Assembly (NCBI GenBank): GCA_002633005.1
Contig: NMRA01000382.1
Location: 384,899-434,255 of the forward strand
Length of the DNA stretch: 49,357 bases
Direction of reading: 5' to 3'
Origin: Phoronis australis
Taxonomy: Eukaryota > Animalia > Phoronida
Every line of letters begins with the position of its first letter. Positions within the stretch are counted from its first letter, which is position 1. The notes beneath the pieces are model-generated. The model searched no databases. It was not told where the DNA came from and was given only the letters and a program-made list of their open reading frames with translations. Positions 12,642-42,837 of this stretch are shown here, one piece after another. The translations under genes were made by a program, and so were the position numbers.

Positions 12642-12647
12642 TATAAA
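12642..12647 (+). promoter_or_regulatory. TATA box of the cysteine-rich repeat gene
   Basis: gTATAAAg 43 nt upstream of a caccATG start that opens a signal peptide. Confidence 0.6.
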
Positions 12648-12684
12648 GGTCGAGCGCTTTGGCAAGTTTGAACAACACATCACC

Positions 12685-12755
12685 ATGATACCATTGGTAC
12701 TTCTTTTACTGGTCAGTTCCCTAAGCGGAACACATGGTAATTACAGGACGTACAT
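12685..12755 (+). CDS. Exon 1 (signal peptide) of an 8-domain secreted cysteine-rich protein
   Basis: caccATG; MIPLVLLLLVSSLSGTHG-NYRTY(M) has a hydrophobic core and a T-H-G cleavage-type site. The perfect GTAAGT donor at 12756 is in phase 2 and matches the phase-2 acceptor at 17222 (AT|G = Met). Confidence 0.8.
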
Positions 12756-15303
12756 GTAAGTGTTGGGTTTTTTAATACTAAGGTAATGTATATCAAGAAC
12801 AATCTTCTACATTATTCTCATTGACGGGACATATCGCGGGTTGTTGAAAGTTTTAACGCTCCATTGACGTCTGCTCCTGACTTTCGTGAACGTCAATTCT
12901 AAATAAGATAAAAATAAATGGCTTCAAATTATAGGAAATTTCAACTGCTTCAGATGGCTCACTCCACAATCGAGTTATGATCACGTCATTTCTGTTTCTA
13001 TGATTTGTGTTTTAACCATTCTTTCATGACCGCAAGTGAGACGCACACCATCTCATAAAAATCTCGCATTGCAACATGTAGACATTTTCCACCAAGTAGA
13101 AAAATAAACGTTATTGGGTGTTCGCAAAAGTAAAGCTTTATCAAACTCTCGCACTTCATAGTACTAGTCTCCACCACGTCCGTCACATTCTGGTAATCGC
13201 ACCCTGCCAAACGGATTTTACTACTTGAGAGGCTAGTCTCCGGAGTTATCCCTCGTTTCATCTAAATTTTAAGTTTTCAGACCTTACCGCCTTATGCGCG
13301 TTACGAGTTTGCCGTGTGTTATATATATTTGGGAATAATTGAATTTCACTTTATTAGGGTGTCAAAAATGTACTTCTAAAATCACTGCAGTACACTGTAT
13401 TTGAGGGATATGAAAATGACGTAAGAAAATCCTATAGTTGGCTACGCAATCTGGAGTAATTCAGATACATGTAGAAAAAACATTACCTTCGAACACCGTC
13501 CCGAAAACTTCGATTATAATTTCGTCTAATGCGGAAAGTGAAAGATACATTTAGGCCTAGACTCACTTTGCAAGGTTTCAGTTTGGAAAATTTTAAAAGG
13601 ATGTGTATACGGTACAAAGTTGTCTGAGTCGTTGTTTAAAAATCTTTGTGGAAATTAATGGACGAGTACTGGATGGCTGCCCCCCAGAAGGAAAAAGATC
13701 AAATGATAAAGGCACGATCAGATTGTAAAAAATCGTTTATATAAAAGTCACTCGCTTTTAAGCGTCGGACGATGCAGCTTTAACCCCACGATTTTAGCCT
13801 ATGTACACGTAAGCTTGGTTAGACTCACCTAATTCTTACAAGATTGGTTTTAATGGCCAAAAACTGTTCAAATTAGTCGATTTTCGTAGATTCATAAATG
13901 TGAAAACAAAAATATATAAACCTTTTAATATCTTGGAACTCTCTTGGAAGAGCATGTTTATTTTATCATTACACGACCATCAGAAATATTGCCTTTGTAT
14001 AATACACAGATAGTTTTTTTCAAGGTAAATAAATGCTATTGATATTTTTAAATACAGTCTCACATTTTTGGTCGTTAAGGTTGCAAGTTTTGATTCCGTT
14101 CTGGTTCACATGGACGTGTTCTGCTTTGTCGTGCAAGATGCACTGTTAATTATTTCCCTCGTTACTGGTTGGAAAAGGTAGGGGGCTGCACTTCAAGAAA
14201 GGGCCTCTTCTGAAGGAGTTCCCGTAATGTGAAAGAATTATATACATGTCGTTGAGGAGAGTGCTTGTTAATTGCTAAATCTGGCTTCTATTTGAATGGT
14301 GACTTTCCCAAAGTAAAATATTATTGATTAAAATTTACGAAAACAGAAAGATAGACTATTCATCTCGACACCTTATAAATACAGATAGGCAAAAAAACCA
14401 TAGGTGCCACCAACAGGTCCTTTCAAATGTCTCAGACCCCGGTTTTTGAAATTTATAACTTCCAAAACAACGAACGCGTAGCGTAGCTCTCATGAAGGAA
14501 CTCATTCCGTTAGTTTCACAAAAATTTATACGCATTATACATGCAAGTCGTGTGCAATTTAAAAAAAAACATAGAAAATAGAGCGACATAATTCCACTAT
14601 TCTCTGCACTGTAAGAGTTCCACGAGGAATTGTCGTAGTGGATTTGAAAACATTAATCAATTTGATCTGTAGAATCTGCTCATTCCAAATGTTCTCCTAC
14701 TTCAAGTAAGTGTTTAGAATTACATGTACGTTTTCGTTTGAACAATCTACCTACAATGAAATCAAATGACAAGACTCCATTAATGATCAGAACTCGACCA
14801 CTAGCAATTGACAAACCTGTTCTGCCCTCTACACTGTACATGATTTGCTGCCCTTGGCCTGAGCTCTACACCTATATCAAAGTCCACGGTTCCGTCATGA
14901 CGCTTGCAAGTTATTTAACGACGCAACCGTGTCCTCACACAGGCTGCTACGGGCCTGCTCTCTTGTTAAAGGCGAAGGCAACCCTTTCCCATGTCATTTT
15001 GAGCTAAAATAAGGTTGGTTGGTTATCCTAGACATATTTTCCACTTAATTACAGCTTTTCGTAATTTCATAGATTACTCGTCCGCTACTCCGGAAGTGAC
15101 GTTTTAGGAGGCAAGCGTTTCCCGCCACTTGGTTTTGCGTTGACTTTAACGTGCGAATCTGTTCTATTCTACTTTTGTTTTGTGCTGTTTTTCAACAATT
15201 GTCGCCACCACTTTCCATCGGCGAGTATTCTGCGGCAAGATAGGTTAGTAGAGAACTCAACTACGTTTGATTTGGGGATTGTTTAGTGTGTTGGAAGCTG
15301 AAA

Positions 15304-15699
15304 ATGGCTGGAGTCGGTGACCCGTATCACAGTGACAGTAGTGTGAGTGACGGAGACCTTGTTCACAGCAGTGGTGACGAGGAATTTTTTCACGGACATT
15401 CAGTTGGTGGGTACATGTTTGAGCCCGAGTATAACGAGGCAGAGTACGCACAGGCACAGGCAGCTGTTGAGAGAAACGAGGCGGCTACTGAGGACAGACG
15501 TGGTGACACATCTTGGTGCAAATGCACTGTGTGCGTTGTTATGCCTACCTCAATGGAATGCTTGTGCTGTTCAGAGTTCGACGAGGCCAAGCCACTACTG
15601 GACATGGTTAAGTGGACCTCCGGCATACCACGGACAGAGGAACAACTGTCCCACTTGCCAGAGTGTCCCGCGACACACTCCCACTGGATGGTGACCTGA
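15304..15699 (+). CDS. Truncated KolX-like accessory protein (P2X7 C-terminal 'ballast'/Nanor-like Zn-binding domain)
   Basis: aaaATGg start and an acidic N-terminus, then YMFEP and R.GDTSWCKCTVCVVMPTSMECLCCSE. This is the YxFEP / WCxCxxCxxM...ExxCCxE motif known from KolX and the P2X7 intracellular domain. Homology ends near 15606. Confidence 0.8.
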   Translation: MAGVGDPYHSDSSVSDGDLVHSSGDEEFFHGHSVGGYMFEPEYNEAEYAQAQAAVERNEAATEDRRGDTSWCKCTVCVVMPTSMECLCCSEFDEAKPLLDMVKWTSGIPRTEEQLSHLPECPATHSHWMVT

Positions 15700-16397
15700 G
15701 CACCCAAACTGCTTACATCGTGTCGTGTGACTCCCTCGCCACACACCTGGCACCTTCTAAATAGCTCCAACACTTTAGACAAGTCCACAATAAACTTATC
15801 AAAGTTTGGCTCACCGATCTGTTCACTGGACGACGAACTGTCCTCTTCACTGGGTGTCGAACTGGGCCTGTAATCACTCCCACTACTCAATATCGCTGCA
15901 GGGCTGCTTAGAGGCTCTGGGCTGGAGAAAACAGCACAGGGCGAATCACTACTGGTTCCAGGAATTGCACGCTCTGGGGTACGTTCGGAGGCACGGGTGA
16001 CAGTAGATGAAGTGCCTCCACTGGCTCCAGTCACTGTACTGGCCACAGCTCGCGAGGCTTCTCGCTTCAAATACGCAATTCTCAGGGGTGGCGACGGGGC
16101 ACTGCCGGGAATCAACACAGACGGAATGGCAACCTTCTTCAGACGTTGTTTCGCAGGGACCTTCATCAGTTCAGTGTACAAATCCCTTTCGTAATCGGAC
16201 GGCAGAAAGTGCTTGCCACACACACGGTAATTCTCCACTGCTTTGTACGTTGCGTGGACGGGTAACGCTGCGTTCTTCACACGAACGAGCCAAGAACGGC
16301 GAAGTGTGTCATCCATCGGAAAGCAATGCAAAGGTACTCCCAAAGCGCGCGTGAGCTGATAATTAGTACATCCTGGTACGCACCAACAGTGTGGCAT
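15390..16397 (-). CDS. Truncated Kolobok transposase: THAP domain, Ser/Pro-rich linker and CxxC..C..GH..W region, with no DDE catalytic domain
   Basis: MPHCWCVPGC...LHCFP...W...RVCGKHF...RLKKVAIPS is a complete C2CH THAP signature. FIVDLSKVLELFRRCQVC...G...WECVAGH..KWDS resembles the conserved pre-catalytic block of Kolobok transposases. The sequence after ~15610 is antisense read-through of the other ORF. Confidence 0.8.
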   Translation of the reverse strand: MPHCWCVPGCTNYQLTRALGVPLHCFPMDDTLRRSWLVRVKNAALPVHATYKAVENYRVCGKHFLPSDYERDLYTELMKVPAKQRLKKVAIPSVLIPGSAPSPPLRIAYLKREASRAVASTVTGASGGTSSTVTRASERTPERAIPGTSSDSPCAVFSSPEPLSSPAAILSSGSDYRPSSTPSEEDSSSSSEQIGEPNFDKFIVDLSKVLELFRRCQVCGEGVTRHDVSSLGAQVTIQWECVAGHSGKWDSCSSVRGMPEVHLTMSSSGLASSNSEQHKHSIEVGITTHTVHLHQDVSPRLSSVAASFLSTAACACAYSASLYSGSNMYPPTECP

Positions 16398-17221
16398 GTT
16401 GTCTGACTAGTAAATGAAAGCAAACGACGACGGAACTTAACACAACCGAGGTAGAACAATGACTGACTCGACAGCTCTCACACTCAGACTATATGAAAAG
16501 AAATTGGCGCGAAATGCTTGCCTCCTAAAACGTCACTTCCGGAGTGGCGGACGAGTAATTAATAAAATTACGAAATGCTGTAATTAAGTTGAAAATATGT
16601 CTAGGATAACCAACCAACCTTATTTTAGCTCAAAATGACATGGAAAAAGGTTGCCTTCGCCTTTAAGCTTACTGTCAACTTATCGAGGCGAAGGAACGAA
16701 GTTAGTGCACGCATTTTTTTCCTTGCTGTCATATCGCATTGTTAAATGTATGGCGTTAAAGCTTTCATCAACAAAGACGTCTCACAATTCATTGCGCACA
16801 TTATTTTCCGTTCCTTCCGTAAAGTCAAAGCTGTAGGAAGTTAGAGCGTAAAGTAATGTATCTCAGTGAGGTCATTATATTGACTGTGGTAAGCTAAATC
16901 GAGACATTTCTCTCTAGGTTACCTGGACCTCGATTTTTAATGAGACAACATTCTTTATCTTGAAGGAAATGAATCCATTCTGTCAACGCTTGAAACTGAA
17001 CCTATTGGTTTATCACGACTTCATGTTTTCTTACATACTCTCGTCGTCGAGAAATTAATATAATTTTGATTTTATTTTGCGAATACAAACACCTGGCTAC
17101 ACTGCTCTTAATACACTGTATATCACTTCACTCTGTATCGTGCAGCTGCAGTGTTGATGAAAATCGTTTTTTGAAGTCTTCATTGCTGAACAGCTGTGGT
17201 TGTTTAATTTTTGTTCTTTAG

Positions 17222-17524
17222 GTGCACTTGTATATACAAGATAGGCAATAGGCAAGGCTTCGTCACCAACGTGGAGAACAGCATGAACCCTACAACTGCA
17301 TGTAGAGATTTACAATTTCGATGCCCAAGTCAGTGCAGATATAGCGCAATTGAGTATTTGAAGCTCACCACCGATGACGGAAAAAACCAAGTGTGTCAAC
17401 TTTACATAGGTCCAAGGACAACAGATGTGGTTGTTTATTCCGGTTCTATTGTGAATGGCTGTCAATTAGGTGTCGCAAAGTATGTAGCCGCAGTGGGAAA
17501 TGGGATTATATGCTGCTACAGGCC
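17222..17524 (+). CDS. Domain exon D1 (CxC type, 9 Cys)
   Basis: ttgttctttAG acceptor, GTAAGT donor, 303 nt, phase 2-2. CTC...TAC...RCPSQC...QVC...NGC...ICCYR(P). Confidence 0.88.
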
Positions 17525-19200
17525 GTAAGTATTATTATATGTTTTAGTAGTGCTACAAAGTACAACTTGTAACATAACCTTGGTATAGCAAAATTACGTT
17601 GGGCTAGGCGACTGTTTCTGATGTTGTCATTAACCTTGTCTAGTTCATCCTTACCGTAAGTACATGTGGAGTTTTGCAAATCCCGCACATGTGATGAATA
17701 CACCAAAAGTCTTGTTCAGGTGTATCAAAAATAAAATTTTCTTCATTCCAATATATAAAAGAATTTTGTAGTGTACTGAAAAAGCTGAATACCCCAATCA
17801 TGTTCTGTCGACAATGGCATGACTGTTTTGCTACGTATCCACTAAATGATGTCAATGTGCATTATAATTTTGTGCACTAGCTACGTGTCTAAAACTTGAC
17901 CTAACTGTGAACCTGCCAACAATGCATAAACAAGCAAAATGAATATTGATTTCAGACATACACTGTAGTCGCGACCTGATAAATATTCCCCTGGCTTGAT
18001 CTAGGGCTCTTGTCGTTACACGTGTAGTGATGAAACAGGGATCGTATTTCGTGCGAGGCCCTACGTGTACGCTTTGCTTATTTGGGTCAGTGAATTCCCC
18101 CACTTTCCAAAAACAGTGAATCGTACCTGCAAGAACGAGATGTGGCCCCTAATTCAGTTGCCCAGAACCCCATTCCGTAGCTTCATTTAGCTGAACGAAT
18201 GATCCGGTACTGCATACAGTACTCAACGTAGATTAATAATAACCAATACATTAAAACGCTAATTTCGGAGCCGGATGTTGAGTGGGCAACTGCCAATCAA
18301 CTCCGTCGCACAGACACTTCCCGGGAGCGGCCGCGAGGACACCCACCCTCGCCCGACGCCTTTTAGTCCAATTGATCCCTCGATGGAAAAGCACCTGGTT
18401 CTGTGGCCGCAAATCCCCTGAGTGTTTTTTTTTATTTTTTTTTTATTTTTTTTTCTTTGTCTTAATTAGTCGTGGCCTAGCTCGGTCGATGCAGCGTACG
18501 TGCTACTTTTTTGAAGTCAAACACAATTCGGATGTATCCGCCCGCAGCCTGCATTTTCCATTTACGCCTATTAGGTCGCATGCTAAAATATTCGGAGGCC
18601 AGAGAATTAAAAAAAAAACTTTGTCAACGTTGAATAATTTTCTGAAATTCGATTAAAGCTAAGGGGCGGCCTCAGTCGGTATTTTATGCGTAGGCGTAAT
18701 CTGTGGGCTGCGGTTATGAGTTTCACTAAACCCTGTTCTATTCATGAATTGCACACTCTCAGCCATTGCCCCAACAATATAGTAACGGTTACTAGGAAAC
18801 CCGCTAGGTATTTTTCTTAACTAATGATGTCTGCGTAATCGTCAGGCTGTTCGGCCTACATGTATGTTGAGAGCAATATCACCTCGCTTAGTGTGTCTCG
18901 AAGTGCCCAAACGTCAAACCGTGCAGCATAATGGGTGGTATTCATTGTTTTGATCGGGCAGGTTCTAAAATGGAAAGACTTAAATTTAAAATATGTACAG
19001 GCAATAAGTAGACCTATGTCACACTCACAAAAAGTTCTGTCAGAGAGTATATTTCGTTGGTTTTGGTGCAATTGCGGCTTATAGGCCCCTATGATTTGAG
19101 AGCAAATACAACATTTTAGATTAAAACGCCGAGGAATTTAAAATACATTTTAGGTGAACATTTGCTGAATCATTTAAACGAATTTCCACTCTTTTTTCAG

Positions 19201-19524
19201 TTGCCGTGCATGCCAACTGCATTACAGACTAGGGAGTCGGGGCACTCTTAAATATCTCGACAAAAATTGGAAACCACACGTACCAAACAAGGAGCCCTAC
19301 TATCCTTGCATGAGTCCTCACGAATTGACGAATGCCTGTTTCGCCGATTGCAAGAACGCAATGTCTGCCGAAGAAATTCCAAAAGACGTCACTTCGTTAA
19401 CAGCTCAAAAATTTTGCAACATCGTAAAGAGCCAAATTGCATATCCTGGTGCGACATTTCTTGTCTCATTTTCCGCCCCACACAATAGTGCTCTCGAGTT
19501 GTCAGGTCTGCCGATCTGTTGTGG
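19201..19524 (+). CDS. Domain exon D2 (CxxC type, 8 Cys)
   Basis: cttttttcAG acceptor, GTAAGA donor, 324 nt, phase 2-2. CRACQLHYRLGSRGTLKYLDKNWKPHVPNKEPYYPCMSPHELTNACFADC...KFC...ICC(G). The ORF track shows only the part from 19310. Confidence 0.88.
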
Positions 19525-20372
19525 GTAAGAGAACCAGAAAGAACGTACGCGAAGGCAGTGCTTGAGCTTTCTTTCACGTCATTCATGTACATGTATGCGA
19601 ATGCATGCATGTAAATACTGAATCTACAGACTCCTAAAAACATTTACATGTACATGTACCAGTGTTCTTGGGTGGGGAACTAATTTTTTACAAGAAATAG
19701 AACTTAAACGTTTCTTCTCAACCGCGGCATGAATTCAAGATAATGTACATGTACATGTACATGTAAGTGTCTACTATTCTGTGTATATTGTTGTTTACGT
19801 GGATGACAGTGTAATTTTCGTTTGCACTTGGTGAACCCGGCGTCAATGTCGTAATTTGAAGTTTTTACTCGAAATCTCGAATTTTCACTGAAGTTTGTAG
19901 TTTGAATTTAGAGGCCTTTAATAGTGAATTAGGATTACACACTGATTGGAATAATTCATAATAGAGTAAGCGATTATTATATGAAGTTCGTATTAAACGA
20001 GAACAGTAAACGCAAATGTATATTTGAGTTCAGCTTCGAGTAAACATGTCAGATCTCAGGCCCTGATGTACCCACGTTCTCTCAATTTGAAAACTCGCAT
20101 TCACAAATATATTATCATTGAAATAAGATAGTATTTGCTAGCATTAAAATTGCAAATTCATTTTTCGCGAGTTGAGTTATTGTCAAGATGAAATGTGTGT
20201 TAACTTCGGTAAGATACTATTTTGAGGGTTCAAGTTGAAAAAATGGATTTATGTCCATTTTTCCACAAGGCATGGCTCTCGTTGTTGACCGGGATCTAGG
20301 ATGTAGTTTTTAGCATTATGATAAACCCAGCACTGTTTCTCTCAGCGTATTTTAAGAGTCCTCAATTTTCAG

Positions 20373-20690
20373 GTGCATATGTGATTTAGAGGCAGTTGTC
20401 AATGGACGGTCTACGAGTTTGCCGGTTCGACTCCATCAGTCGAAAGAAAGAACAACCTTCGACTGCGCTAAGCAGTCTGACCAGTGTAAGGACTACTGTC
20501 GTTCAGTGATCGCATCGGCGCTGAACGTCAATAAAGCAAAGTTCTCATCCTTTGACCAAGCATCCGGAAACAAAGTCTGCGGGGTTCTGGGTGAGCACAA
20601 TTCTACCAACTCCCCGGGACATGTCGTGTATTCCAGCTACAACTACGGGAGTGGATTGAAGAAAGACTATCGAGGGGCAGTTTGTTGTGG
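20373..20690 (+). CDS. Domain exon D3 (CxC type, 8 Cys)
   Basis: aattttcAG acceptor, GTATGT donor, 318 nt, phase 2-2. CICDLEAVVNG...FDCAKQSDQCKDYC...KVC...VCC(G). Confidence 0.9.
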
Positions 20691-21039
20691 GTATGTACAT
20701 GTAGCGATTTCAAGATGGTTCGTTAATATGATAATTATGTAAACATTTATCGTAGTTCTGTGTATCTGTCACATCCTCGAGAGGTAAGACGGGCGGCAAT
20801 ACGGAAGGGAATAGTGGGTGAGACACAGCTGCAGTGAGAGAGAAGTATTAGAACCGCCAGGGATCTTAGAGGGAAATGATGGGGGTGGAAAAGTGGACGA
20901 GCGGATGCAAGACGAAAAAGGGAGATGAAAACAATTCACGTTTATTTGGGCGATGACCCAAATTGTGCACTTGTGAAAAATGTAAGTGGGCTAAACTAAC
21001 TACACCTTTGGGTTTCAACTGCTAATTGACTTTTCATAG

Positions 21040-21357
21040 GTGCACGTGTAATCTGAAAGCCTCTATTTCTTCGGGAAAGCTGGTGGATGTTCAACTTCCC
21101 TTAAAGCAATCTTCGAAAACCAAGTTTTACATGTGTCAAAAACAAAAACATGAATGCGCCAACGACTGCAGACGAGCTATTGGTGCAATTCTCAACAAAG
21201 ATAGAAAATCATTTGGAAACTTTGATGCCAACTCCAGAAGGAAAATTTGTGATCTTGTTTGGAAAAAGAATATCATTGCCGCTGGGATTTCAGTTTACTC
21301 ACAATACAAGTTCGGAAAGACCACTGAATTGGATCCATTAGGAATCGTCTGTTGCGG
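21040..21357 (+). CDS. Domain exon D4 (CxC type, 8 Cys, strongly basic)
   Basis: Branch-like ctaat plus ttttcatAG acceptor, GTAAGA donor, 318 nt, phase 2-2. CTCNLKA...YMCQKQKHECANDC...KIC...VCC(G). Confidence 0.9.
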
Positions 21358-22176
21358 GTAAGATCTTGTGTTTACGTTTTAAGAAACATAATTATGTCAT
21401 AATCTTGCACTATCTAATCAAAATTTTGCAAGCGCAGTAATGTTCTTAAAGTGTTATATCCGAATATTGGCATAGCTTTCATTTCGAGTTGAAAATGATG
21501 GGCTTGCCCGAAATTCACATTGTCAGAATTAAGTGAAGCGACACTTTAAATGTGTGTGCTCAGTTTGTGAATTTGTTTATATGCCTTGATACAGGCATCA
21601 GCCAACGCTGAGACACGCAAAAAGCGAGAAAAGGTATAGATTTGTGAACGTACCGTGATCCAGACTATGTAACACTCACTACTCTTGTGGTGTCGTATTA
21701 ACCTGTTCGGGTGCACGCCTTAAAAATGCCAATCTGTCGATCAAACCATACATGTAAGGTATGTTTAAACCAGTCATAACAGCGTTCTGGTATTAAGAAT
21801 CATTTACTACCAATACAGGCGCTACGATAGCAACGTCATCGTGTTCTTATGTTTTGTTTGAATTGAAGTTGGTAATCAAGGTAAGTCGCCTAAAGCCGTA
21901 CTTTCTGGACGACTGAAGCTAACCCGCCGTATATGTACACATGGCAAACAAACAACGGGCATGATTTGAACACAAGTCCCCTAAAACCCACACTCATCAA
22001 TGAGCCTTTCATTGACTTCGATGGAAAATGTCCATTGCTTAAGTGCTAGGCTGACTGAAGACATTACCGTGTAGCTTAAGGTGTATAGCTTCTTTGATAT
22101 TTTATAATCCAACCTGTTTTACTATAGAGTATTGGGATACTATCCTAGTAAATTTTGTCCTGATTTGGTCACAAAA

Positions 22177-22337
22177 CAGGGGCGGATCCAGGATTTTGAG
22201 TTAGGGGGGCCACGTCTGAGTAGTAGCCATGATTTTTCTCGTCAGACGTTCGAGCCCCTGAACTTCCAAATGGATCTAGGAGAATTTTAGGGGGGCATGG
22301 CCCCCTTGCCACCCCCGCCCCTCTAAATCCGACACTG
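22177..22337 (+). mobile_element. Short hAT-like MITE (CAGgGGCGGAT family)
   Basis: Termini CAGGGGCGGAT ... ATCCGACACTG; flanks caaaa / cataa. Both ends are shared in inverted orientation with 25628-25898. Confidence 0.75.
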
Positions 22338-24629
22338 CATAAGTTCTTCTATCTCTGATTAGATCGCTATTGCCTAATCTACTTGTTCATGTACAGAATG
22401 TCTTGTGTTTAGCAATCTTGGTTGCCAGTGGTCTTAGCAATTCACCGACGGTACAGTGTACATGTATGTAGGGTTCATCACATTACCTACTTGTAGTACA
22501 GTGAATGCTGGCGGGTAAGAAGGCAATAGCAGAGCATACTGAGGTCAAAACAACAGACCCTCCGGTGGAATAACATCCAGATGCTAGAGGGTAAAACAGG
22601 TTGACTAAAACATTGAGTGTTACGCAGTGTTTACTATATCACATAAAAATCGCCGCAGAAGTGAAAAAGCAAAGCGACATACCAATATATATACATAGGT
22701 TAGAGGTTGATGTAACCAGACAAAAAAATTAAACACGGGTTAAAATTGTAGCTTCATATTTACCCCATTTTAGTCACTTGAGATTTGGCCACCGGTCGTT
22801 TAATTGTCGTTTTAACCGACGTTTTGCTGAGTCAGCACGCAGGTATCAGACAGTAGGATATGTTTTATCATTGGTTGGTGTAGCCTCGGCAGCCATTGTT
22901 TAGCTTTACAACAAAGTGAGAAAATGGCAGACTAACAAATGGTTTTTAGCCTTGTCACACGCCGTCACCTGGTCGGTTTAACTAGTGTGTTATTCCTACT
23001 GTATGAATAAGGACAGCAACATAAACAAGTCAGTGACAGTAGAAAGATGCATTCCGAAAAGGTGCAACCACAATTTTCCGGAGATCACATTTTTCAACAC
23101 GAATTTTAAACAGTTACACACCATGGATTTTTGCACATTTTGAATTACCGGTGGCCATAGACTAAATGTATGAGGGAAAATTTAGGTACACCCATGTTTA
23201 TTTTGTGTAATTAGCTCGAAATTTTGATTTTTCTTTCAATTTTGCCAATTTTCACATTTGCCGCCATGTGACGTCTTGGGTGGAACACAAGAGGTCTGTG
23301 ACTAGTATTGAACACTGGCGGAGAGCAGGGAACTTGAAAGTGACGACGATTATGAGCAAGAATTGAACGAATACTATGAAGAAACGTACGGGAATGGTGG
23401 CCAGGATGAGGAAATGGGGTTGCACGAAAGCGAGAACAAGTTTAATGTGCTTCTGGCTGCGTACTTTTCTACTTTGAGCCTTACGAACTGGATCCTCCCG
23501 CGAGAGAAGCGGCCTCTGGCTCAGCGAGTCAACCCAGTCATCACAGACGATCCTGAATTAAGAGCTGATGTTTTGAATGATAAATATTGCCCTTTATTGA
23601 ACCAGGCCTTCATCGTAACGTCTCCTGTGACTGGAGTCGAGACACGAGTCCTCAAAGTGGGCAGAACACAGAGTCGGTGGCCCCGGACCGAATCGCTTGG
23701 TCCACGATGACGTCCCACACTCTCGTTCGGCGCACGAAGCGATGCCACTTCTGCACAACTTTGGTGTCCTTTGGAACACCGAGACGTTCTCCGCCTGGCT
23801 GCTGTTGCTGCAGCCTCCGGAAACACATCGTTTGATCCCTCTACGAACCTTCTCGACGCTAAATGTACTTTGCTTTCACTTCACTCTATACATGTACACT
23901 TTGTCTCTGATCCGAACAGTATGGCGAACGACTTGGGTTCAACCCATGACGTTGTATGTAATTACTATTTTTTTCAATTTTTGGGTGTTTCTTTATGAGC
24001 TGTGCACTAAAGGAACTTAAATCAAGTAAGATATAATTGTAAAATTTATTTTGAGGTACAAGAGTCATGCTGTGTACACTTTAAGCACCGATTTTTCTGT
24101 AAAACAGACCATATTTACATGTACACTTCCTCCATCAGTCATGCCAGTTTGTTTGTGTAAAGCGCTGCCTATTGAGAATTCGACCAGCCAATCAGAAACG
24201 TCGGTGTAACAAAATTCCCGAGAAAAATTAAGTGATACCCATTGAGATAAATATATCTAGAGTTGACATCACGTGGTTTTCGTTGAGCGGAGTGATCCGC
24301 CATCTTGCTGAATCGATGTCCCGAGACAATTAGTTGGGATATCGAGATCTTGAGATACTATAATCGGGATATCGAGATTCCGTGATTATTAAAAAGAAAC
24401 GTGCGACGTCATCTTTGACCACCGTATACAGTGCATGTACTTTCATGCAAAAGTGGAAAATTTTAAGAATAATTCCTTCCAACTTTTTGGTGGAGAGTGG
24501 ATGAAGTAGAGTATCCATCAGCTGCTCAGGAATCCTATGAATCCACTTCCAAGTTATAGTCCAGCCTTAGCCAAATTTAGTAATTTTTCTGGGTTGACAT
24601 CTCTGATTCCAAGTGTTTATTTTCACCAG

Positions 24630-24965
24630 GAAATGCCTTGCGTGTGGTGTACGGTACACTCAAAATGCCAACGATATTGTCGCAAAGGAGTACAAGTTGG
24701 ACGGCCCAAATGATACTTCTCCATATTATGACTGTTCACAGCGTTTAACGACCAAATGCGGAAAAGATTGTAATGCCACTCTGACAGCCGCAAGCAACAA
24801 TAATTACTTTGGAAGAAACTCCGTAGATTCCGTTTCAGCTCAAAAAGTATGTGATAACATTGGACGACCTATACCCACCCCTGGATTGCGTGTCGAAGTG
24901 ACATATGACATAGGCGACAATCACCATCACCATTTTGTGGTGCCAGGTGGAAGTGTTTGTTGTGG
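24630..24965 (+). CDS. Domain exon D5 (CxxC type, 8 Cys)
   Basis: ttttcaccAG acceptor, GTAAGC donor, 336 nt, phase 2-2. KCLAC...YDC...KCGKDC...KVC...DNHHHHF...VCC(G). Confidence 0.9.
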
Positions 24966-25627
24966 GTAAGCTGTATAGTTAACATTGTTACTATTGTATA
25001 ACATTGCCATTTTATTACAACCCCCAATGTGATATGGTAAAGGCCTACTCGTACATTTGTTGCTTGTTCTTTGCATGACTGAAGGCGATGGAATCGGCAA
25101 GTTATCAAATCGGTAGTTAACTCAGCCATGCGCTATCGATCGATGATCACTCATTTTACAGGTGTTAGCCAGAACATTTTGATTGTACAAAATTCAAAGC
25201 CCGATATTGGAAGGAAAATTGTTCTATACATTGAGTTAAGTGGCGAAAAAATCAATGTTACTGACCGTAAAAGCAAACTTTCTGTCGACATTTCTCCCTA
25301 CAATCGACGACTTGCCTGTGGCGAAACTACGGCTGTTTACAACGGAGGAAGTTTGCTGCAACTCGGCTGTGCCCAGTATGGTTCTGTTACGCAATCGGCG
25401 TACTATGACTTGTTCCAAAGCGTGGAAAATTCGTCGAAGACGCAAATCCGGCCATCGAGCGAGTGCGTTTCAAAGCCTAACAACTGATCATTATCCGTGT
25501 GAAGACAACTTGGTTGGCCAAAAGAAAGGGTGGAATGCAACGGAGGCCACTCCCATTGACGAGCCTTTACGGTTGCGTGACAAACAAAATTTTGAATATG
25601 GAAAGGCTTTTATTTTTTGTTACGACT

Positions 25628-25898
25628 CAGTGGCGGATTTAGGGGGGGCAAGGGGGCCATGGCCAACCTAAAATTCTAGAAGAAACCATTTGACTAGCAC
25701 ATCCAGGGGTCTCGGGTGAATAAACAATGCATAGGCCCTGAACAAACCCCGTTTATGTTTTTTTTAATCAAAAGGTACGCAAACCCAAAAATTCGACGCC
25801 CCTGCATCCCTACATTTTAGGGTGGGCGCGCATCTGCCGAAATTCTGGTTGTTCTTGTGCCCTGGCCCCCCTAACTCAAAATCCTGGATCTGCCCCTG
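25628..25898 (-). mobile_element. hAT-like MITE, same family as 22177-22337, inverted
   Basis: Termini CAGTGGCGGAT ... ATCTGCCCCTG with an exact 5-bp TSD CGACT. Confidence 0.8.
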
Positions 25899-28165
25899 CG
25901 ACTATTCGGAAATTAATACAATCCAGGTCAAATCCTTGCCCTACAGGTCTAAAGCAAGTCGAGGTAGATCCGGTCGTTGATAAGTGGGAAAAAATACATG
26001 TAGCCGACTTGCGTACTCATTCCTAGCAGACAGGCTATCGACCGCACTACCAACATCATGTAGAACCAACTTCAACGAATGCTCCTGAACAAACCGTTCC
26101 AAAAACAACTGATATAGTGTTTGATTTTCGAAAGTTTGACTGTAATAATGAAAAGTTGTTTTACTACATGCATGGCAAGAATTTAAAGAGAAAGCCTTAG
26201 AGTGTGATCATGATCCTTGTCAGTTTACCGACCCAAGTGGTGACCGAGGTATCGACTGTAAGCAGACTCTGTTGCTTGTCATTTAGACAGCCGATCGCCT
26301 ACATGTACTTGTAGCGGATCTGACACAAAAAATTCGGGACGTGCTCTGAAGTTCAATGGTCTGCAGGAGTTTTGATTTTGGTGGCGAAAATTGTGAAGTT
26401 TATTTAACTTACAATAGGTTGTAATATATCTCCATTATTCACACTTTGAAATTCCGTATACTGGCAACTGAGGCACTTGCAACGGATTGTTCCACAAAAT
26501 CCTCGACCCCTACACCCACCACCCTCTTGACCCACAACCCCCTCGATCCACGAGGTGTAACAATGAAAGTATCTTTGCCCTTTTTACATTTCATAATCAT
26601 ATTTCGTCGCTGAATGACCTTCCCATAAGACTCAAGTCTAGTAATTAAAACTGAAAGTGTAGAAAGAACATGATCTGAAAAAGCGAATTGTGAACGTACT
26701 GTCGTTGTCACGGAAAGTCCCACGAACGGCTACCAATATCCCTGTTCAAGTAAACTTAGGGAGAGAATAAGTTAACGTGACTGGACAAAATTTCACTTCT
26801 GATTACATGTATTTGCTTTATGTTGTATTTTCGTTTACAATATACTCCATGTCAGGTTGAGATTCTAGTTTAGTTAACAGTTTGTTGTTCAAATTGTCCT
26901 TTACTGAAGAAATTGCATATTCGTTGGTTCCTCGCACTCTCCCAAAAAACTTGAAGTTTTAGTTCAATGAAGAGCAGACGAGACGATTACACATTGCTGG
27001 ATACTACATTTGTAATGTTAATGCTTGTAAGTTTTTATTTGATTTGGTCACGTGTTTTTTTTTTCTTTTTTGGTTTCCAAACTTGTCGAATCGATTCTCT
27101 TAATCGCAGAAAAAAACTAGTGGGAAAATCCAGTCGAACTCATGGCCGAACTTGTTGTCCACATTGCCAGGGCTTGTTGTATGTTCAGATCGAGTCGAGC
27201 CTACGTAGACTGGGTCGAGCTATTCGGTCGTGGGTCATGCGAACACCAGGGGGTGGACTCAGGGGCTCCCCATTTGGCGAATTGGGCAAAAAGGTCCGCT
27301 CAGAGAAACATAAAGTCCGCGAAAACGAGACCAAAGTACATTAAAAAGATATGAATTCGGCGAATGCATAATTCATAGATCTGCACGTACCCTGTTTTTT
27401 TTAGTAAAAGGTCCACGTTCTCAAAATGTTTACGAATAAGACGCAGGGGACGGACCAAAGAAAGAATACTTGGGGAATATGTGTTGTGCGGATAAATCTG
27501 TAGTGGAGAAATCTGGTTCAAAAATGATGTACGTTCAGAGCTATGAATTGTGCATTATCCAATATGTGGGTCCGTTCGAGCCACCCTCCCCCCATCCCTG
27601 GGCGCGCACATGCTGCTACGAAGCCGATGAACTCCGGACGCGTTTTGCTAAAACTTCAAACTTGTTGAAATTTTACAGATCGCTTATAGACAGCTAAGGC
27701 TGCCGTAAGTTTTGGCGTCTTTAAGTAACGAATTTTCAACGAAACAAGAACCAGGAAACCGACATGAAATTCCTGAAGGCAAGGTACCACCTGATTATGG
27801 CCTTTATTTGGAAAATTTCTGAATCAAGTACGATCCCACTTGCCTTCGGAGGCAGAATTGTAGTTCGTAGTTTCATAGTTCTAGGGCGTTCGAGAGACAA
27901 CGCGTGATTTTACACTAGATACATGTGCACTTGATCGAAAGTGAAATGAAATTTCCGAATACAAAAGTAACCGATGAAGAAATGCAGTCAAAGGTACCTA
28001 GACATGTAGTGGGAGTGTCCATCAGGAGTCCCATGTAAGAAAGCATGGCGTTTCACCGTTCAGTTGTAGCAACTGTCAGAAAGTGTTTCTGCAATGCTAA
28101 TTTTGTGGTTGTAAAGAATCGCTCTAAATTCATCTACATGTACACATGTTCGTGCTTGATTGCAG

Positions 28166-28486
28166 ATGCAACTGTAATTTAAAAGCAAAGACTGTAACTG
28201 GTGACATTGTGAAGGTACCAATTACTCTTTTCCAATCTGCGAGAAACAAGTACTACAATTGCCAAGCTCAGGAAGAGGAATGTCGGAAAGATTGTAGGAT
28301 CGTTATTGGAAAGGCACTCAGTGCTGATAAAGGGCCATTTACTGTATTTGACAACCACTCTGGAGATACGGTTTGCCAAAATATTGACCAAAATATGCTT
28401 TTTAACGAAACAGGAATTCCATTATACTCAGAATATCAATTCGGAGCCATCGATGGCCTGGACTATCTGGGAAGTGTATGTTGCAG
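28166..28486 (+). CDS. Domain exon D6 (CxC type, 8 Cys; paralogue of D4)
   Basis: ttgattgcAG acceptor, GTAAGA donor, 321 nt, phase 2-2. CNCNLKA...YNCQAQEEECRKDC...TVC...VCC(R). Confidence 0.9.
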
Positions 28487-30897
28487 GTAAGATCTCAATG
28501 CAAGACGTGTGATTTGTCCAAATGATCGTTACACAAGGCATCCTGGTGATTGAAACCGGAGGGATGTAATGTGATTGTACTTCCAGTTCCGCAAGCAAAA
28601 CATGTCTCAAATCATCGTCCACACAAATCGTTTTCCTACCGTTTTGAAAAAATAATAAAAAGTGAGCACAGACACATACCTGTACTGCATGTCCAAATGG
28701 TTGCCGGCATCTAATTACTATACCTTGTCAAACGTGTGCTCGTTTTACTTGTCTAGACACGGCTCAGGAGTGCTTAGAACGCGTTTAGAAAGTAGGACTT
28801 TCTATCACCTGAGATCCCAATTATTCTGTTTTGAAGGGGCAAACTGAAACAACAGACCTGCTGGACCTTATTTAAAATATCCGTTTCTGTCTAATGGCTA
28901 TTGCTTCTATCAGAAAATATAAGATTCGCCACGTACATGTACATTAGCAGCCTGCTACATTCGATCAGAAAAGAACTCGATCTAATTAATACGCCGGTGT
29001 TCACATAAGAGAAAAAGTCATTTTTATGCAAAATTCCTTCTGAACTTGGGAGTTTCATTGCGTACTTTTGCAAGATGGATAGTCAAGCCACGTTAATTTC
29101 AATTTCGTTACAGCTGTAGCTTAATTGCTTTGTTGGATAAGTTGTTAAGATACAATAATTTGAAATAACGGATACCCGGTAATTTATTATCATCACCACT
29201 GTACTCAACACTACGCCCAGGTGCAGGCACATGTGATTTAAGATTGATCCTAATTTAGAATTCTTTACATATAATCAACTGTCAAACCAGAATTTTATTA
29301 GAAAATCAATATCATTTATTTTTACTTAACACTCACCAATCAAAGGTTCCATTATTATACCTGACATCGCATAAAACTAAATGAGATATCCTAGCAGTTA
29401 TCTCTGGTAAACATCCACCAAAACTAAATCTACTATTGAGTTCCTCCTCATACTTTTAATTAAAAATAACTATCACTACCCTTTTTATATTCCTTTTGTG
29501 GAAAAATGTCGAAAACCTAAATTCGTCACTCGTTTAATATAAACATTAAAACCGACCAGTTATTTTTAATTTGAATGTGTTTTTATATTTTGACGTGCAG
29601 CTGTAGGTGGCGATGTGATTTTAGCGCTAGTTTAGCCTATTTCGCTCGTGTAACCGGGTCCTGAAGTTATTGAAAACTATTCCCTGATGCTTCAGCTGTG
29701 CGCTTATGTTCAATTGTTTGTGAGTGGGGGAAATCCTGTTGGTCTTTTGTTGGTCATTGAACACAAAGGCCAATCCCGTAAGAAAATTAAATGCCTAAAC
29801 ATTCAATCAGTAAATTTTCCCTGAGTTTTTGAAATTGGTGAAACTTTTATTTTGATCAGTCTTATTTGACTTTAAAATTCGAGATGATTTCACAGTTTTG
29901 TATCGGTCTAGTTTTAATTGACATAATGAACTTCAGCAAAAATAGATGGCCATATGAGTTTCGACCACGATTTTTCTGGGGACATCGATAAAATTCTCGA
30001 AGATTACAGTTAGATATTGCATGGTTGACTCGCGGATTTGTAAAAATTTTGTAGCCAAATAAATGATCGTGATTCTTGCCTATGTATTAAAGTGAAAGTT
30101 CAATTTAACTTCAATTCAAGGTGTATCATTCTCCAAACTCAGGCTAAGAAACTATAAATTGGACTCTAGCACAAAACTGATCCTACATTCCCGTTCATTG
30201 AACAAATAATAGTCTTTGTTTCAATTTATGAGCACAAAAATATCCCTTAGGTAAAAATGAGTACAAAAGTAATTTTAATTTAAAAATTGGTTTTAATCGT
30301 GCAATCCGGAATTTGATTTAGAATACTTCATAATGTAAAGGGGTCTTGTCATTACTTACAGAAGAAAAGATTTTTGTTTTTTCTTTAAGTTATTCCTCGA
30401 GACAGTGCTCGGCGAATATAATGACACCACGTGACATCAGTCAAATTGTAGAGCCTGGTCTCAGGGAATAGCGAACTGTCAATGCTTAGGGAACCCACAG
30501 TCAACTATTGTGACTAACAATACTTTGAGACCAATGTCAAAATCATCAGTTGTTTGTTTTTGTGGGACAAATCTTGTTTATAAACGCTTTAAGCACCTGT
30601 CACGTAGAGTTAAAAATGCCGGTTACTATTAGAATGAGTGTTCATACATGTAGCTGGGGCCGATATATTATAGAAAATAAAGAAGTTTCCTATTGGCAAC
30701 CTGTTGCGTTTGACAACCACCAATGTAGCACCGACATGTGGCCACTTGACACGAAGATTTCTGCCAGCACACCGACGAAGTGTCCAGGTGGGGCTCAAAA
30801 GCTAGGTCCTTCAATACAACCAGGTGGCCAATAAGTAAGCTACTTTAATCCCTCTCTGTGTGCTTGTTCCAACTGAACAGTATGTCCTTTTTACCAG

Positions 30898-31230
30898 GAA
30901 GTGTCAAGCGTGCGTTTTACGATACCTTGAGAATGACAACGCTCAAGTGAAAAAAGAATTTGTTTTGGATGGTCCTCACAACGTCACGTCGTACCATTGT
31001 TCTCGACGAATAACCACTACTTGTGAGCAATCTTGCAACGCCACTCTGTTGTCTCCTAGCAACCATGAGTACTTTGGTAACACATTCGTTAACGCGGTTT
31101 CTGCTCAAAGAGTCTGCAGAAAGGTTGGACGATCGATACCCAGCCCTGGGTTACGTGTTGAAGTAAATTACGATGTGGGGGACAACAAGTATCACTATTT
31201 CCAGGTGCCTGGTGGGAATGTATGCTGTGG
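30898..31230 (+). CDS. Domain exon D7 (CxxC type, 8 Cys; paralogue of D5)
   Basis: ctttttaccAG acceptor, GTAAGT donor, 333 nt, phase 2-2. KCQAC...YHC...TCEQSC...RVC...VCC(G). Confidence 0.9.
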
Positions 31231-31827
31231 GTAAGTATACAGTGTACCTACAAAAATAGTAGGCAAACGTGCCATCACCAGAGCATGAATCGTCAAATAG
31301 TTGAAGTCTTTTATAGGTCGAATCTCAATGTTTTTTAAACGACTTGAACGATTCAGCTGGATTTTTGTGCAGCGTTTCTAGGCTTCAATTCTTTCTGTTA
31401 CCAACTGCAGTTAGGTTGTTACTACATGTAAATTATATATCTCATTGCCCGCATTTCGTTTCACATGTACTTTTGTCTCTTCAACAGTTATTTTGTCGGT
31501 CTTATTCTTTGATTTTTGGTTGACTTACTGCATTCTTAGAAGGATATACTAAAATGTAGAGAGAGTAAAATTATAAAGTTCGGGAGAAATTAAATGTTAA
31601 AATTCAGCAGCAATCGTTTTAAAAACCTAAAAAGACTTGGATTTGCAAATGACTTTCTTTGGAGAACGAAGTTTTGGTCGCAACTACAAAATGAGAGCTT
31701 TTTTGGGCATGAAATTTACTTTGGTGTCACAGTGCTCTGTGGGAATCCTGATGCTTGGAAATGGTCGTCTGGCAGGTTCGCTTTGATGGGTGTGGTCAGG
31801 GGAGCCAAGAGAATGACACTCAAAAAT

Positions 31828-32772
31828 TGAGCTAGATCAACTTTTCTCGAAACCACTTCAAACTGCCTTGGATACCTACTGCGAAATTCACTGTATCAAA
31901 ATTGGTCACTGCCAGACAACTGAAGTGGTGGGAATTATCAGCCAGACGGTTTTAAAAAAGGTAAAAAAATGAGCTATATCAATTCAGGAGGTAACCGCAT
32001 GAAACCAGTTGCGAAATATTCACCGAGAGCCCAGGTATCACGAATGAACACTGCCAGACAAATCTAGTGGTGGGTTAGCCCCGCCAGACACGCCAGATAC
32101 CCGAGTTAACCCACCAGGTATCCGTTTGAAACCCATTGCACGATGTTCAGCATCACTCTACATTGCACAAATGTTAGATGCCAGATAAATTCAATAGTGG
32201 AGGCCCCTGCCGGGCGATTATAAAAAAGGGTTAGAAATTGAGCTAGGTTAACCCAAGAGTTAACCGCATGAATCCAGTTGTAAAATATTCGCTGGGAGTT
32301 CAGGTATCAAGAACAATTACTGCCAGACAGATCTAGTGGTGGGTCATCCTCGCCAGACACGCCCAAGTACACTATACCTGAGTTGAGCTAGATCTACCCA
32401 ACATGTAACCATTTGAAACCAATTGCCCAATGTTCAGCATCACTGCACATGGCACAAGAGTAAGATGCAAGACAATTTCAGTGGTGGGTTTTCCCTGCCC
32501 GACGACTATAGAAAGAGCTAAAATTTGAAGTAAATCAACCCAAGAGGTAACCGCATCACACCAGTTGCAAAATATTCTCTGGAAGCCCAAGTATCATTAA
32601 TAAACATTGCGAGACAAGTCTAGAGGTGGATTAGCCCTGCCACTCACGATCAAATATCTGAGTTGGGCCAGATTTACCCGCCAGGTAACTGTTTGAAACC
32701 TTTTTACATAATGTCGAGCAACATTCTGCGTGCAACAAAACGTACTTTACAGACATTTCCAGTGGTGGGGCA
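31828..32772. repeat. Degenerate tandem repeat, ~270-290 bp period made of two ~140-bp subunits
   Basis: gtaaccgcat-like anchors at 31991, 32260 and 32547. tgccagaca...agtggtggg recurs at about half that period. Confidence 0.8.
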
Positions 32773-35378: not shown

Positions 35379-35570
35379 TTAAACTCAGCCAAGAAACAAA
35401 ACAGCAGATTCTGCTATTTTGGTTTAATTGCTAGCATAGTACGGTAGAAGTGCAGGCAGTTTCAAATTTTGAATCGAAAGTTATCGTCAAATGCAAATAT
35501 GTTGTTCATCCAGTGTCCACTTTGATTGTAAATAGTCCTTTTGCGAGTATATTACAATAACGCGAGACTA

Positions 35571-36565
35571 TGTGACGTCACCGGATGTGGGGCAAAAGCT
35601 TGTCGTTTGCCATTTGCCCGATACGGTAGCAGAGTGTATTCTGCTGTTTACTTCGAGTTTTTATCTTTTAGTGTGAAAAATGCCACTACACTATGTTCCA
35701 TCGCGTTCTGTACTAATTTCGTCCGCGTGTATTTCAAACGGGTGGTAGGCGAAATCCGCACACTGATTAAGTTTTCACCTCGTCAAAAATACATTCTACA
35801 CACCTAAAATTATCACCTAAAAAGTCCCTTACTTTCTTCAGTGATCCTTTTTGCTTCCGAACATATCTTCGATGAAGCATAGCTAGGGGAATGCAGGTGA
35901 CTTTGGTGAAGAATTCCAACTCCACTTTTGGTTAGGGCGCGATATCCACAAAGTATTTCAACTGAGTCAAGAGAGTATGAGGCAAAGGCAAGCGCGAGAC
36001 CGAGCGAAGCGCGGGACCTGGCGCGTTACACTTGTACATTAGCCTCGGAAAACATCAAGTGAACTTTTTAAGATTCTTGTCCCTTGGACTTTTAGTTCGA
36101 CAACAGGCGAGATTTCGCGTAATTTCCTCAAAATGGCGTCCGTTGAGAGAAACTCGAGCGAACTGCGAGGTTTTCATGGATATGTTCAAGTTATTTGCGG
36201 ACTAAATTGTATCAAGAGTCAGGGTATGTGCTAATTATAATTCCATGTGCACATATGCATGTTTCAATTGATTTTATTTGCTGTATTTTAAAATGAGTAA
36301 CTTTGTATGGGATATACTATCGAGCCTGTATGCCTGCGTCATTCAAGCCTAGACCGGGTCGTTCAGTCCGTTCACAACTTCGCACAGCATAATAAGTTCA
36401 CATTTTCTTCGTCCATTCACAGTTTTTCAACGATCCATCTACCATCCCTTAAATCGTGTTAACGTTTTAAGCTTAAAATTCACCATAAGAACTCCGGTAA
36501 GATTTCGCGTGTGTAGCAAAGACTGGGCAAAACAAAAACAATATGGCGGNTCCGGTGACGTCACA
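35571..36565. mobile_element. Non-autonomous TIR element (element X)
   Basis: Inverted 15-mer TGTGACGTCACCGGA (35571) / TCCGGTGACGTCACA (36551-36565). The interior ~35683-36330 is repeated inverted at ~38012-38643. The exact ends and TSD are not resolved. Confidence 0.65.
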
Positions 36566-40382: not shown

Positions 40383-40764
40383 ATGTAGTTGTGAAGTGAA
40401 GATAAGATACAAGATCAACGGAACTGTAAAGACGCTCGGCGTTGCCGCTGAACTGGCAGCTAGGCCAAAATACTTCGCTTGCGGTAGCCACGTCAGCCAA
40501 TGCAAGAACCAGTGTAGAACGGCTGCTGGTAAGGCCCTTGCTGGTGAAGAGACAGCAGTAACTTTGGTGGATGCGAACATCGCCAACAATGTCTGTATGC
40601 TTCTGAACACGACAGTGCCTAAGCCAGGCGCCTTAGTGTACACCGAGTACGACGTGGGAAGGGGAAGCCGGGAAGACCCTCTGGGAAATGTCTGTTGTTT
40701 TGTAACTCCTGAGGCATACTGGGCATTTGGACTTCCGCCAATCCTTGCGACCTTGTGTAAATAG
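40383..40764 (+). CDS. Terminal domain exon D8 (CxC type, 8 Cys plus a tail Cys, stop codon)
   Basis: gttacAG acceptor in phase 2. CSCEVKIRY...FAC...QCKNQC...NVC...VCCFVTPEAYWAFGLPPILATLCK*, with no donor after the CC. Possible poly(A) signal ATTAAA at 41070-41075. Confidence 0.9.
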
Positions 40765-42837
40765 ACTATTTAACGAGTTCCATGAAATTTGCTGCTCACG
40801 ACAACAACTTAACGAATGTAATTTTGAATCGTACCTTAACTTTATTGATATCAGTGACGTCTTAAACATGGTGTGTTGGGGGATATGATCTACCCCAATA
40901 ACATGGTGTGACATTCTTACCAATGATTTGCGTGCTTCAGGAAAGGAACAGTTTAGAGAAAAATCACAGCGAAACATGGAGAAGACATAAAATTCACGAA
41001 AAAGTGCTTCATTCACACTTTGAGGTCCCTGGCCATAACATCGATCGTATTTTGCAGCATAGAACGTCTATTAAATTGCATTTGAAAACATACATTTTAT
41101 CTTTCATAAAGCACAACTTCTGCAGAGCATGTTAATTCAATAGAGTTTTAAATTCAAGTAGGAAATTTTAAGGAATCCAAAACTGTACTGTATTTCTCCA
41201 GGGACCCCCCTCTCTCTAAAGGGTTACGGAGCCATCCCTCGCATCCCTTTTGCTCATTTTCGAGATTGTTAATAGCTTGAACAAATTGAAAACCTGGCAT
41301 ATAGCATTCAATTGCTGCTAATTTCCGCTTTTTTGGATTTACTTTCATTTCATTTCATTTATTTGCACTCGAGACCATAGGCCCACAGTACGTATATAAC
41401 ATACCGGGTCTATACAATACAATACATTGAGTACGCATACACAAGCATGTACTATTCTAAGCATCCATAATTTTTGTCTGTGTATAGAGGCGTAATACAC
41501 AAACGTTTCGGCACTCAAGGATGGGAAATCCTCAAAGGTGCAATTTTTTGGAAATTTAGGATTCGTTCACACTGAGTTGTCCAACCCATGGATGACATCC
41601 CAAGCATCCACTCCTGTTTTATTGATCATTTCGTAAGATCCCGCTCATGAAGAGAGTGTCCATTGTTTTCTGGCTGGCATCTAAATACTAAAAAAGACAA
41701 TAGACAGATTCGTAGAAAATCTTTAGCGATTAGGAGGTAAGATGGTAAGAACTGGTTATGCTTCAGCGAGTTTAGTTGCAAGCTGAAATAAGCAAAATCA
41801 AGCTTTTCCCTAATAATAATAACGTATTTTGCTTACCTATAAAACAGTAAAAAATATTAATAAGAGTTNACCTACAGCTCTGTGAAGTCGTGTGTATTGC
41901 CCGGTTAGTACATGTAGTTCTGACTTGTAGGAGAACATATTGTAAGTACTGTCACCACGCAATATTTTGTCATATGACTACGAAAGGTATTTCAAACTCC
42001 CTATTTATAAAGTTCCCACGTTTTGAGTTCACATTTTTTGTAAAAACCAAGGCCTTTATACATTAATCATTCACATACGTTGATGACTAGAGGACGTTGT
42101 AAACAACACTAGCCAATCATAGTATAGGAACTTATTTTGATGCCCGCAGAGATTGTAGATTATCTACAGGTATTTCACCCGCGTACCAGAGTGTCTGAAC
42201 AGTTAAAACAATGTATCCACAGTCTTTAAAAAAGTGAACTCTAAAAATGTCATTGCAAGCATAGAATGTATAAGAGTATTTCCGGAATTTTCCATGGATT
42301 CTGAAAACAATAGTTAAAAGTTTTAAGGAGTAATTAGTGAATTTATCAGAAAAACGTTTTAACCAAAATTTGTACAGTATGCTTCGTTTATGGTGAAAGA
42401 AATATATTGAAAGGCGTCATCAGAGGGAAATACATTCCAGTTAATCAATCTGGCTTCAGTTGAAATTTATTTTTCTACTAATTTTACCCGAAATGAAGTT
42501 CGCCGAAAAGTGTCTTTCACTTTTGCCATGGTTTTGGCACGAATCATCGAACGCCATTTTTAAGATCAAGTTCTCAGTGGCATAAAATACTGGGTAAATG
42601 GACACGACAGGCAAGAAAACTGAGTACACATGTAACACGCGTCTTTTTTTCTACAAAAAGTACAACCACAATTGACCTATCGCTAGGATTATGAAGGACG
42701 GCTTAATTGACCAATCAGAACGCAGCATTCTTGGTACACCTTTGTCAGCGTTTCCAAGCCGCCATTTTACCCGACAAACCACACGCAGTCGAGTAAAACT
42801 TACTTTAGTCTGTAGCTCAAGAAATTGTTCTCTAAGA

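Follow-up and report, generated by a model that had tools for sequence, protein, structure and literature searches.

Symmetric phase-2 exons encoding a predicted eight-domain secreted protein in Phoronis australis: a likely leftover of exon duplication

Does an array of symmetric exons, each encoding one domain of a secreted protein, betray combinatorial splicing or the way in which the gene arose? The question is raised by a stretch of 49,357 nucleotides from Phoronis australis (Phoronida; GenBank assembly GCA_002633005.1, contig NMRA01000382.1, positions 384,899 to 434,255 of the forward strand; hereafter the window), in which one signal-peptide exon is followed by eight domain exons, D1 to D8, separated by phase-2 introns. 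A preliminary description of this DNA had read the symmetry as a possible sign of combinatorial splicing, with up to 128 isoforms of what may be a secreted effector. The analysis presented here leads to a different view: the exon symmetry probably reflects past exon duplication rather than a splicing device, and the chances are about even that the gene encodes a secreted structural protein of eight domains, made mainly in constitutive form. The exon junctions were inferred from DNA, no spliced reads having been seen, and the gene is laid out as follows.

12642..12648, + strand: putative TATA-like box called from sequence, ~40 nt 5' of the start codon
12685..12755, + strand: coding part of exon 1, signal peptide, with a phase-2 donor after 12755 (GTAAGT)
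17222..17524, + strand: D1, first-type domain and N-terminal cap, 303 nt, nine cysteines including C7
19201..19524, + strand: D2, internal domain of type A, 324 nt, eight cysteines
20373..20690, + strand: D3, internal domain of type B, 318 nt, eight cysteines
21040..21357, + strand: D4, internal domain of type B, 318 nt, eight cysteines, net charge +11
24630..24965, + strand: D5, internal domain of type A, 336 nt, eight cysteines, 58% identity with D7
28166..28486, + strand: D6, internal domain of type B, 321 nt, eight cysteines
30898..31230, + strand: D7, internal domain of type A, 333 nt, eight cysteines
40383..40764, + strand: D8, last-type domain and C-terminal cap, with tail, C10 and stop codon; its model has a predicted local distance difference test score (pLDDT) of 86
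41070..41075, + strand: candidate poly(A) signal ATTAAA, the sole candidate within 1.7 kb 3' of the stop codon

The exon structure and the symmetry described earlier were borne out. All eight introns (349-9152 nt) are of the GT-AG type and in phase 2, with GTAAG at seven of the eight donors and GTATG at the other, and D1 to D7 measure 303-336 nt, each a multiple of 3. Every one of the 128 subsets of D1 to D7 between exon 1 and D8 is in frame and stop-free, as had been stated, and this holds with either phase-2 donor of exon 1 (after 12755, or the rival after 12749; a phase-1 GT follows 12736). The two phase-2 donors form a pair 6 nt apart at the exon end (12749-12756), of which the weaker yields the junction found in relatives: use of the donor after 12749 would place Arg-Thr immediately before Cys-x-Cys, like in P0017, P0029 and P0030. 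A single signal exon was found within 12000-40400. A profile built from 77 homologue domains, excluding the window sequences, matches exactly D1 to D8 among 1281 six-frame pieces (E-values from 8e-17 to 0.008; next-best piece, 0.86). The full chain would comprise about 900 residues, 66 of them cysteines.

The phases become less surprising once the origin of the exons is considered. D1 to D8 are paralogues with eight cysteines common to all and pairwise identities of 19-58%. In the tree, D2, D5 and D7 form a type A group (support 97/93; D5 with D7, 100/95), D3, D4 and D6 a type B group (90/84), and D1 clusters with the first domain of a sea cucumber protein (90/79) on a long branch. Nonsynonymous divergence (dN) is lower than synonymous divergence (dS) in both D5/D7 (0.31 and 1.77) and D4/D6 (0.54 and 1.44); dS is saturated in three of six pairs, and no positive selection between paralogues was seen with dS this near saturation. 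Judged from these comparisons, the exon duplicates are old and under purifying selection. Eight phase-2 introns would arise by chance with a probability of (1/3)^8 = 1.5e-4 if independent, but the figure does not apply as independent events because the exons are paralogues: a duplicated exon retains its phases, and the eight introns therefore represent one inherited state, not eight events. In the available text of PMC3632108, one symmetric phase is common to 108 of 118 highly similar neighbouring human exons, and the share of 2-2 exons is 5.79% among alternative and 4.55% among constitutive exons. With the odds up only about 1.2-1.3 fold in these data, symmetry only weakly indicates that exons are alternative, and the earlier use of it as a sign of combinatorial splicing is not supported.

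The same figures bear on regulated cassette skipping of D2 to D7, which would give two- to eight-domain chains in up to 64 cysteine-balanced forms and might tune rod length or surface. Symmetric modules suit skipping (PMC8001218, accessible part), and both the schistosome micro-exon genes (PMC5825161) and the Dscam-type clusters (PMC3228551), as far as the available portions of these sources go, resemble the present gene in having, within a gene for a secreted protein, symmetric exon arrays that could give variants. However, beyond the small rise in odds, the window exons are long and encode whole folded domains, at 303-336 nt about ten times longer than the symmetric 6-36 bp exons that make up most of the coding sequence of the schistosome genes and are spliced combinatorially. 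Cassette skipping appears an unlikely explanation for the array.

The earlier description called class 2-2 an atypical class among extracellular modules, in agreement with the accessible text of PMC8001218 (Patthy), which assigns every shuffled type of extracellular domain to class 1-1. The window gene shares with these modules introns of one phase at the domain borders and one disulfide-rich folded domain per symmetric exon. It differs in being class 2-2 and duplicated within one gene, the 36 parsed relatives giving no hint that the domain was shuffled elsewhere, and its domain is predicted to be alpha/beta and likely not self-contained.

What kind of domain is repeated here? No Pfam family reached the cut-off for nine window peptides or 32 relatives, and a sequence search of the PDB gave no relative (lone match, E 0.74). 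The D8 model consists of two strand hairpins and two helices; at E 0.001, Foldseek found no match for it in the PDB or among viral models, nor for the model of a three-domain relative. Structural look-alikes of D8 and of domain 1 of P0017 in the Atlas were unnamed arthropod clusters of 104-159 residues (scores 0.91 and 0.89; template modelling (TM) score 0.61). The cysteine spacing points in the same direction. D1 reads C-x1-C-x23-C-x6-C-x3-C-x19-C-x21-C-x16-CC, and Sv-Clf1, counted by eye in the available part of PMC6391395, reads C-x1-C-x23-C-x5-C-x3-C-x26-C-x22-C-x15-CC-x7-C. Crustacean larval factor (Clf) and insect follicle cell protein 3C (FCP3C or Fcp3C) are described there as secreted ten-cysteine domains; Sv-Clf1 is able to bind chitosan and impedes the formation of calcite, and planthopper Fcp3C is required for the chorion (PMC5493777, in part). 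Expression in follicle or larva is a further trait reported for these proteins in the two papers. By cysteine spacing and the unnamed Atlas clusters, the window protein likely belongs to the Clf/FCP3C family. It resembles the described members (PMC6391395 and PMC5493777, accessible portions) in secretion, with a hydrophobic exon 1 that supplies the signal peptide, in a domain of about 100 residues and in the scaffold C-x-C...C...C-x3-C...C...C...CC...C. The ten positions of this scaffold are split between D1 and D8 and no domain holds all ten; the scheme is spread over eight domains, whereas the supplement of PMC6391395, as far as it was available, contains single domains with ten cysteines. 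Clf is acidic, while the net charges of the window domains span -3 to +11. Clf/FCP3C members are also small single-domain proteins of about 100-200 residues; here eight domain exons lie behind one signal exon, and the protein is therefore classed as a related tandem variant and not as a Clf. Named Clf/FCP3C members were absent from the protein-search matches and were compared by spacing, not by direct alignment.

The nearest characterised proteins are those of cuticle and egg coat, which leaves the earlier 'effector' role without support. The product may instead be a rigid extracellular structural protein of cuticle, egg coat or a similar matrix, and its production may be restricted to a certain stage or tissue. 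No tandem Clf/FCP3C-like protein outside arthropods is described in the literature searched, which most subscription papers lay outside. According to the available text of the 2019 Clf paper (PMC6391395), transcriptome shotgun assembly sets of annelids, molluscs, echinoderms and hemichordates yielded nothing similar, and in PMC13339497 the Clf paper appears solely in the reference list.

Tandem relatives nevertheless occur beyond the window. While word-based protein searches returned none and a wider alignment seven, a search of 1.84 billion representatives recovered 31 (profile E down to 1e-24), mostly a signal peptide followed by two to four tandem domains. Of ten relatives looked up, two are named, CAF0853428.1 from Brachionus calyciflorus and XP_071846670.1 from Apostichopus japonicus. 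In the 36 parsed relatives the domain content is the Clf/FCP3C-like domain alone; armadillo-FCP3 models are reported in the accessible part of PMC6391395. The rotifer and sea cucumber proteins share with the window protein the signal peptide, the first, internal and last domain types and the cysteine rule described below, but have two to four domains (most commonly three, at most four) joined by linkers of at least two residues. The fold of the three-domain relative was predicted with a pLDDT of 89.9 and a predicted TM score of 0.79, and this model is in line with a fixed domain packing. Two genomic loci, L001 and L002, were taken from 130 metagenome pattern matches. Unlike in the window gene, both domain junctions in each of them are intron-free and lie within one open frame; chains are therefore made without splicing there, and those genes do not share the border introns of the window gene. 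L001 contains one intron of 73 nt, in phase 0, within the late part of domain 3. L002 (1-2420) contains a head-to-head pair of genes of the same family, with about 70-100 nt between the frames.

The cysteines of the 36 relatives, counted on a scaffold numbered C1-C10 after exclusion of four proteins that fell into the same 90% clusters, follow a rule. In 47 of 47 non-first domains C3 is kept and C7 absent. The domains not preceded by a Cys-Cys pair (n=19) have both C3 and C7 in 14 cases and neither in five, namely four first domains and the second domain of P0030, a protein in which domain 1 has lost one cysteine of its Cys-Cys pair. C3 and C7 are likewise missing together from two beetle FCP3C sequences (by eye, in the accessible part of the PMC6391395 supplement). 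These counts come from related sequences and equal about three independent co-losses. One tail cysteine is present in 27 of 28 last domains. In the window, C7 occurs in D1 alone and C10 in D8 alone; D1 obeys the rule for first domains and D2 to D8 that for non-first domains. The co-loss suggests a C3-C7 bond in a first or single domain. In a chain, the spare cysteine of the preceding Cys-Cys pair (likely C9) would pair with C3 of the next domain, and that of the last domain with C10, so that D1 and D8 would serve as caps and a disulfide is predicted across every exon junction.

Given this rule, the claim of 128 isoforms holds only in part. The frame count stands, but the cysteine balance does not: the 64 subsets with D1 have an even number of cysteines and the 64 without it an odd number, leaving one unpaired, so that at most 64 forms are balanced. 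The parity speaks for cassettes insofar as every in-frame subset with D1 is even, and D1 with D8 alone would match P0017, a two-domain sea cucumber protein; it speaks against them in that half of the forms first envisaged are unbalanced. A related and rather improbable extension would treat D2 to D7 as plug-in modules, each with one free disulfide donor and one free acceptor. Exclusive or combinatorial splicing of these modules between the two fixed caps would then produce as many as 64 stitched rods that differ in length and surface, a class 2-2 system of diversification on a fold without a solved relative.

The numbering also allows an origin to be sketched. An ancestral phase-2 intron may have lain one base 5' of the domain's first cysteine codon. 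A copy of the last-type exon would then have acquired a donor just past the Cys-Cys pair, losing the tail and C10 and becoming symmetric, and duplication of this exon would have produced types A (D2, D5, D7) and B (D3, D4, D6).

RNA reads say little about the use of the exons. A search of sequencing runs listed no RNA data set that carries the sequence. Three runs, sampled to about one fifth with 11-13 million records apiece, and the contigs of a fourth were placed at 90% likeness on 12300-31500, a stretch without a control gene and with D8 outside. Reads fell on intronic repeats. Depth was zero in the bins of exon 1, D1 to D4 and D7, and traces appeared in one run, X7, alone (0.6 in the D5 bin; 0.19 and 0.06 in the D6 bin). 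Of 90 joints, none of the 15 listed connects exons; no exon-skipping read was seen, and this counts against cassettes. In the sampled runs the gene is nearly silent, and because these barely cover it, mutually exclusive or cassette use of D2 to D7 is not refuted.

In the mutually exclusive case, exon 1 and D1 would be joined to one of D2 to D7 and then to D8, which would yield six proteins of three domains that differ in the central one. Their architecture would be the one most frequent among the relatives, with balanced cysteines, and the tail of D1 would supply the usual linker of 3-4 residues to any of D2 to D7. These six exons are neighbouring, homologous, of like length (318-336 nt) and of one phase, as the WebScipio criteria for exclusive clusters demand (PMC3228551, available part). 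On the other hand, sequence tests for an exclusion mechanism (steric, U2/U12, frame or nonsense-mediated decay, docking-selector) found none: the shortest intron of 349 nt imposes no steric block, all introns are GT-AG, there is no frame-shift filter and every exon has a strong donor. Unlike in the Dscam-type clusters, no docking-selector pairing was found with 10- and 12-mers, one mismatch and 330-nt flanks, a simple test that can miss real sites; the best shared complementary word occurred in two to three of five flanks, and the 12-mer matches amounted to the palindrome TACATGTA. Relatives, moreover, hold unspliced whole-domain chains of up to four domains. Mutual exclusion appears unlikely. 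The palindrome TACATGTA is itself frequent, with 39 copies in the window against about 1.4 expected from base content.

Each D exon could also be an alternative last exon, or part of a separate or decayed gene. Read-through at six of the seven internal donors reaches an in-frame TAA immediately, but an immediate stop is inherent to any phase-2 GTAA donor, the products would lack C10, and AATAAA lies within 600 nt 3' of only two of the seven exons. Separate or decayed genes are at odds with the one signal exon, the intactness of all exons and dN below dS. Either version is very improbable.

Several observations weigh against a constitutive eight-domain protein of this family. No relative exceeds four domains, and the commonest count of three equals D1, one internal exon and D8. 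No spliced read exists for any isoform, the full one included. D2 to D7 have the features by which mutually exclusive exons are predicted from sequence, and the authors of that approach regard constitutive look-alikes as rare: in the accessible text of PMC3228551, such look-alikes occur in 6 of 1705 genes of the fly X chromosome, or, counted by transcripts, as 90 exons (of 16180) versus 26 annotated and 39 newly predicted exclusive exons. The Clf/FCP3C link comes from spacing and unnamed clusters rather than alignment, and the disulfides from co-loss rather than coordinates; in addition, the cysteine rule leaves D2 to D7 freely removable. Finally, the linker from Cys-Cys to the next cysteine is a single residue at four of seven junctions, shorter than each of the 56 linkers in relatives (minimum two residues, mode three), which is unexplained. 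Such linkers do not discriminate between the models, since one is required before D8 whenever an internal exon is used, and they fit a donor gained just past the Cys-Cys pair.

Two things set the locus apart: an extracellular module of class 2-2, and a disulfide predicted to stitch neighbouring domains together across the junctions. The gene would extend the Clf/FCP3C scaffold, described as arthropod, to tandem chains in rotifers, an echinoderm and Phoronis australis, and cysteine co-loss would yield the first disulfide scheme for it. It would also provide a clean natural example, of traceable origin, of a module class missing according to the exon-shuffling literature. Were splicing variants found, modularity would extend to the reading frame as well as to the disulfides, a rare combination; without them, the gene would be a common product of exon duplication whose fold happens to be uncharacterised.

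Other features of the window include open reading frame X (25162-25487, + strand), a 107-codon frame in the D5-D6 intron with a good phase-1 acceptor, a stop and no Pfam hit. It was rejected as a ninth domain, not being a match of the homologue-domain profile, and would fit an alternative last exon joined to the phase-1 GT after 12736, or chance. Intron 1 holds a THAP-domain element (14966-16666) with 171-nt terminal inverted repeats, from whose family many RNA reads derive. Just 3' of D7 (31910-32648), a unit of roughly 270-290 nt is present in three diverged copies, and much of the 9-kb D7-D8 intron is filled by a big decayed inverted duplication (34200-38830) of a repeat also found at 8570-10220. 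Upstream of the gene, the last exons of a cyclophilin gene (PF00160; 950-3173, + strand) are usable as an expression control.

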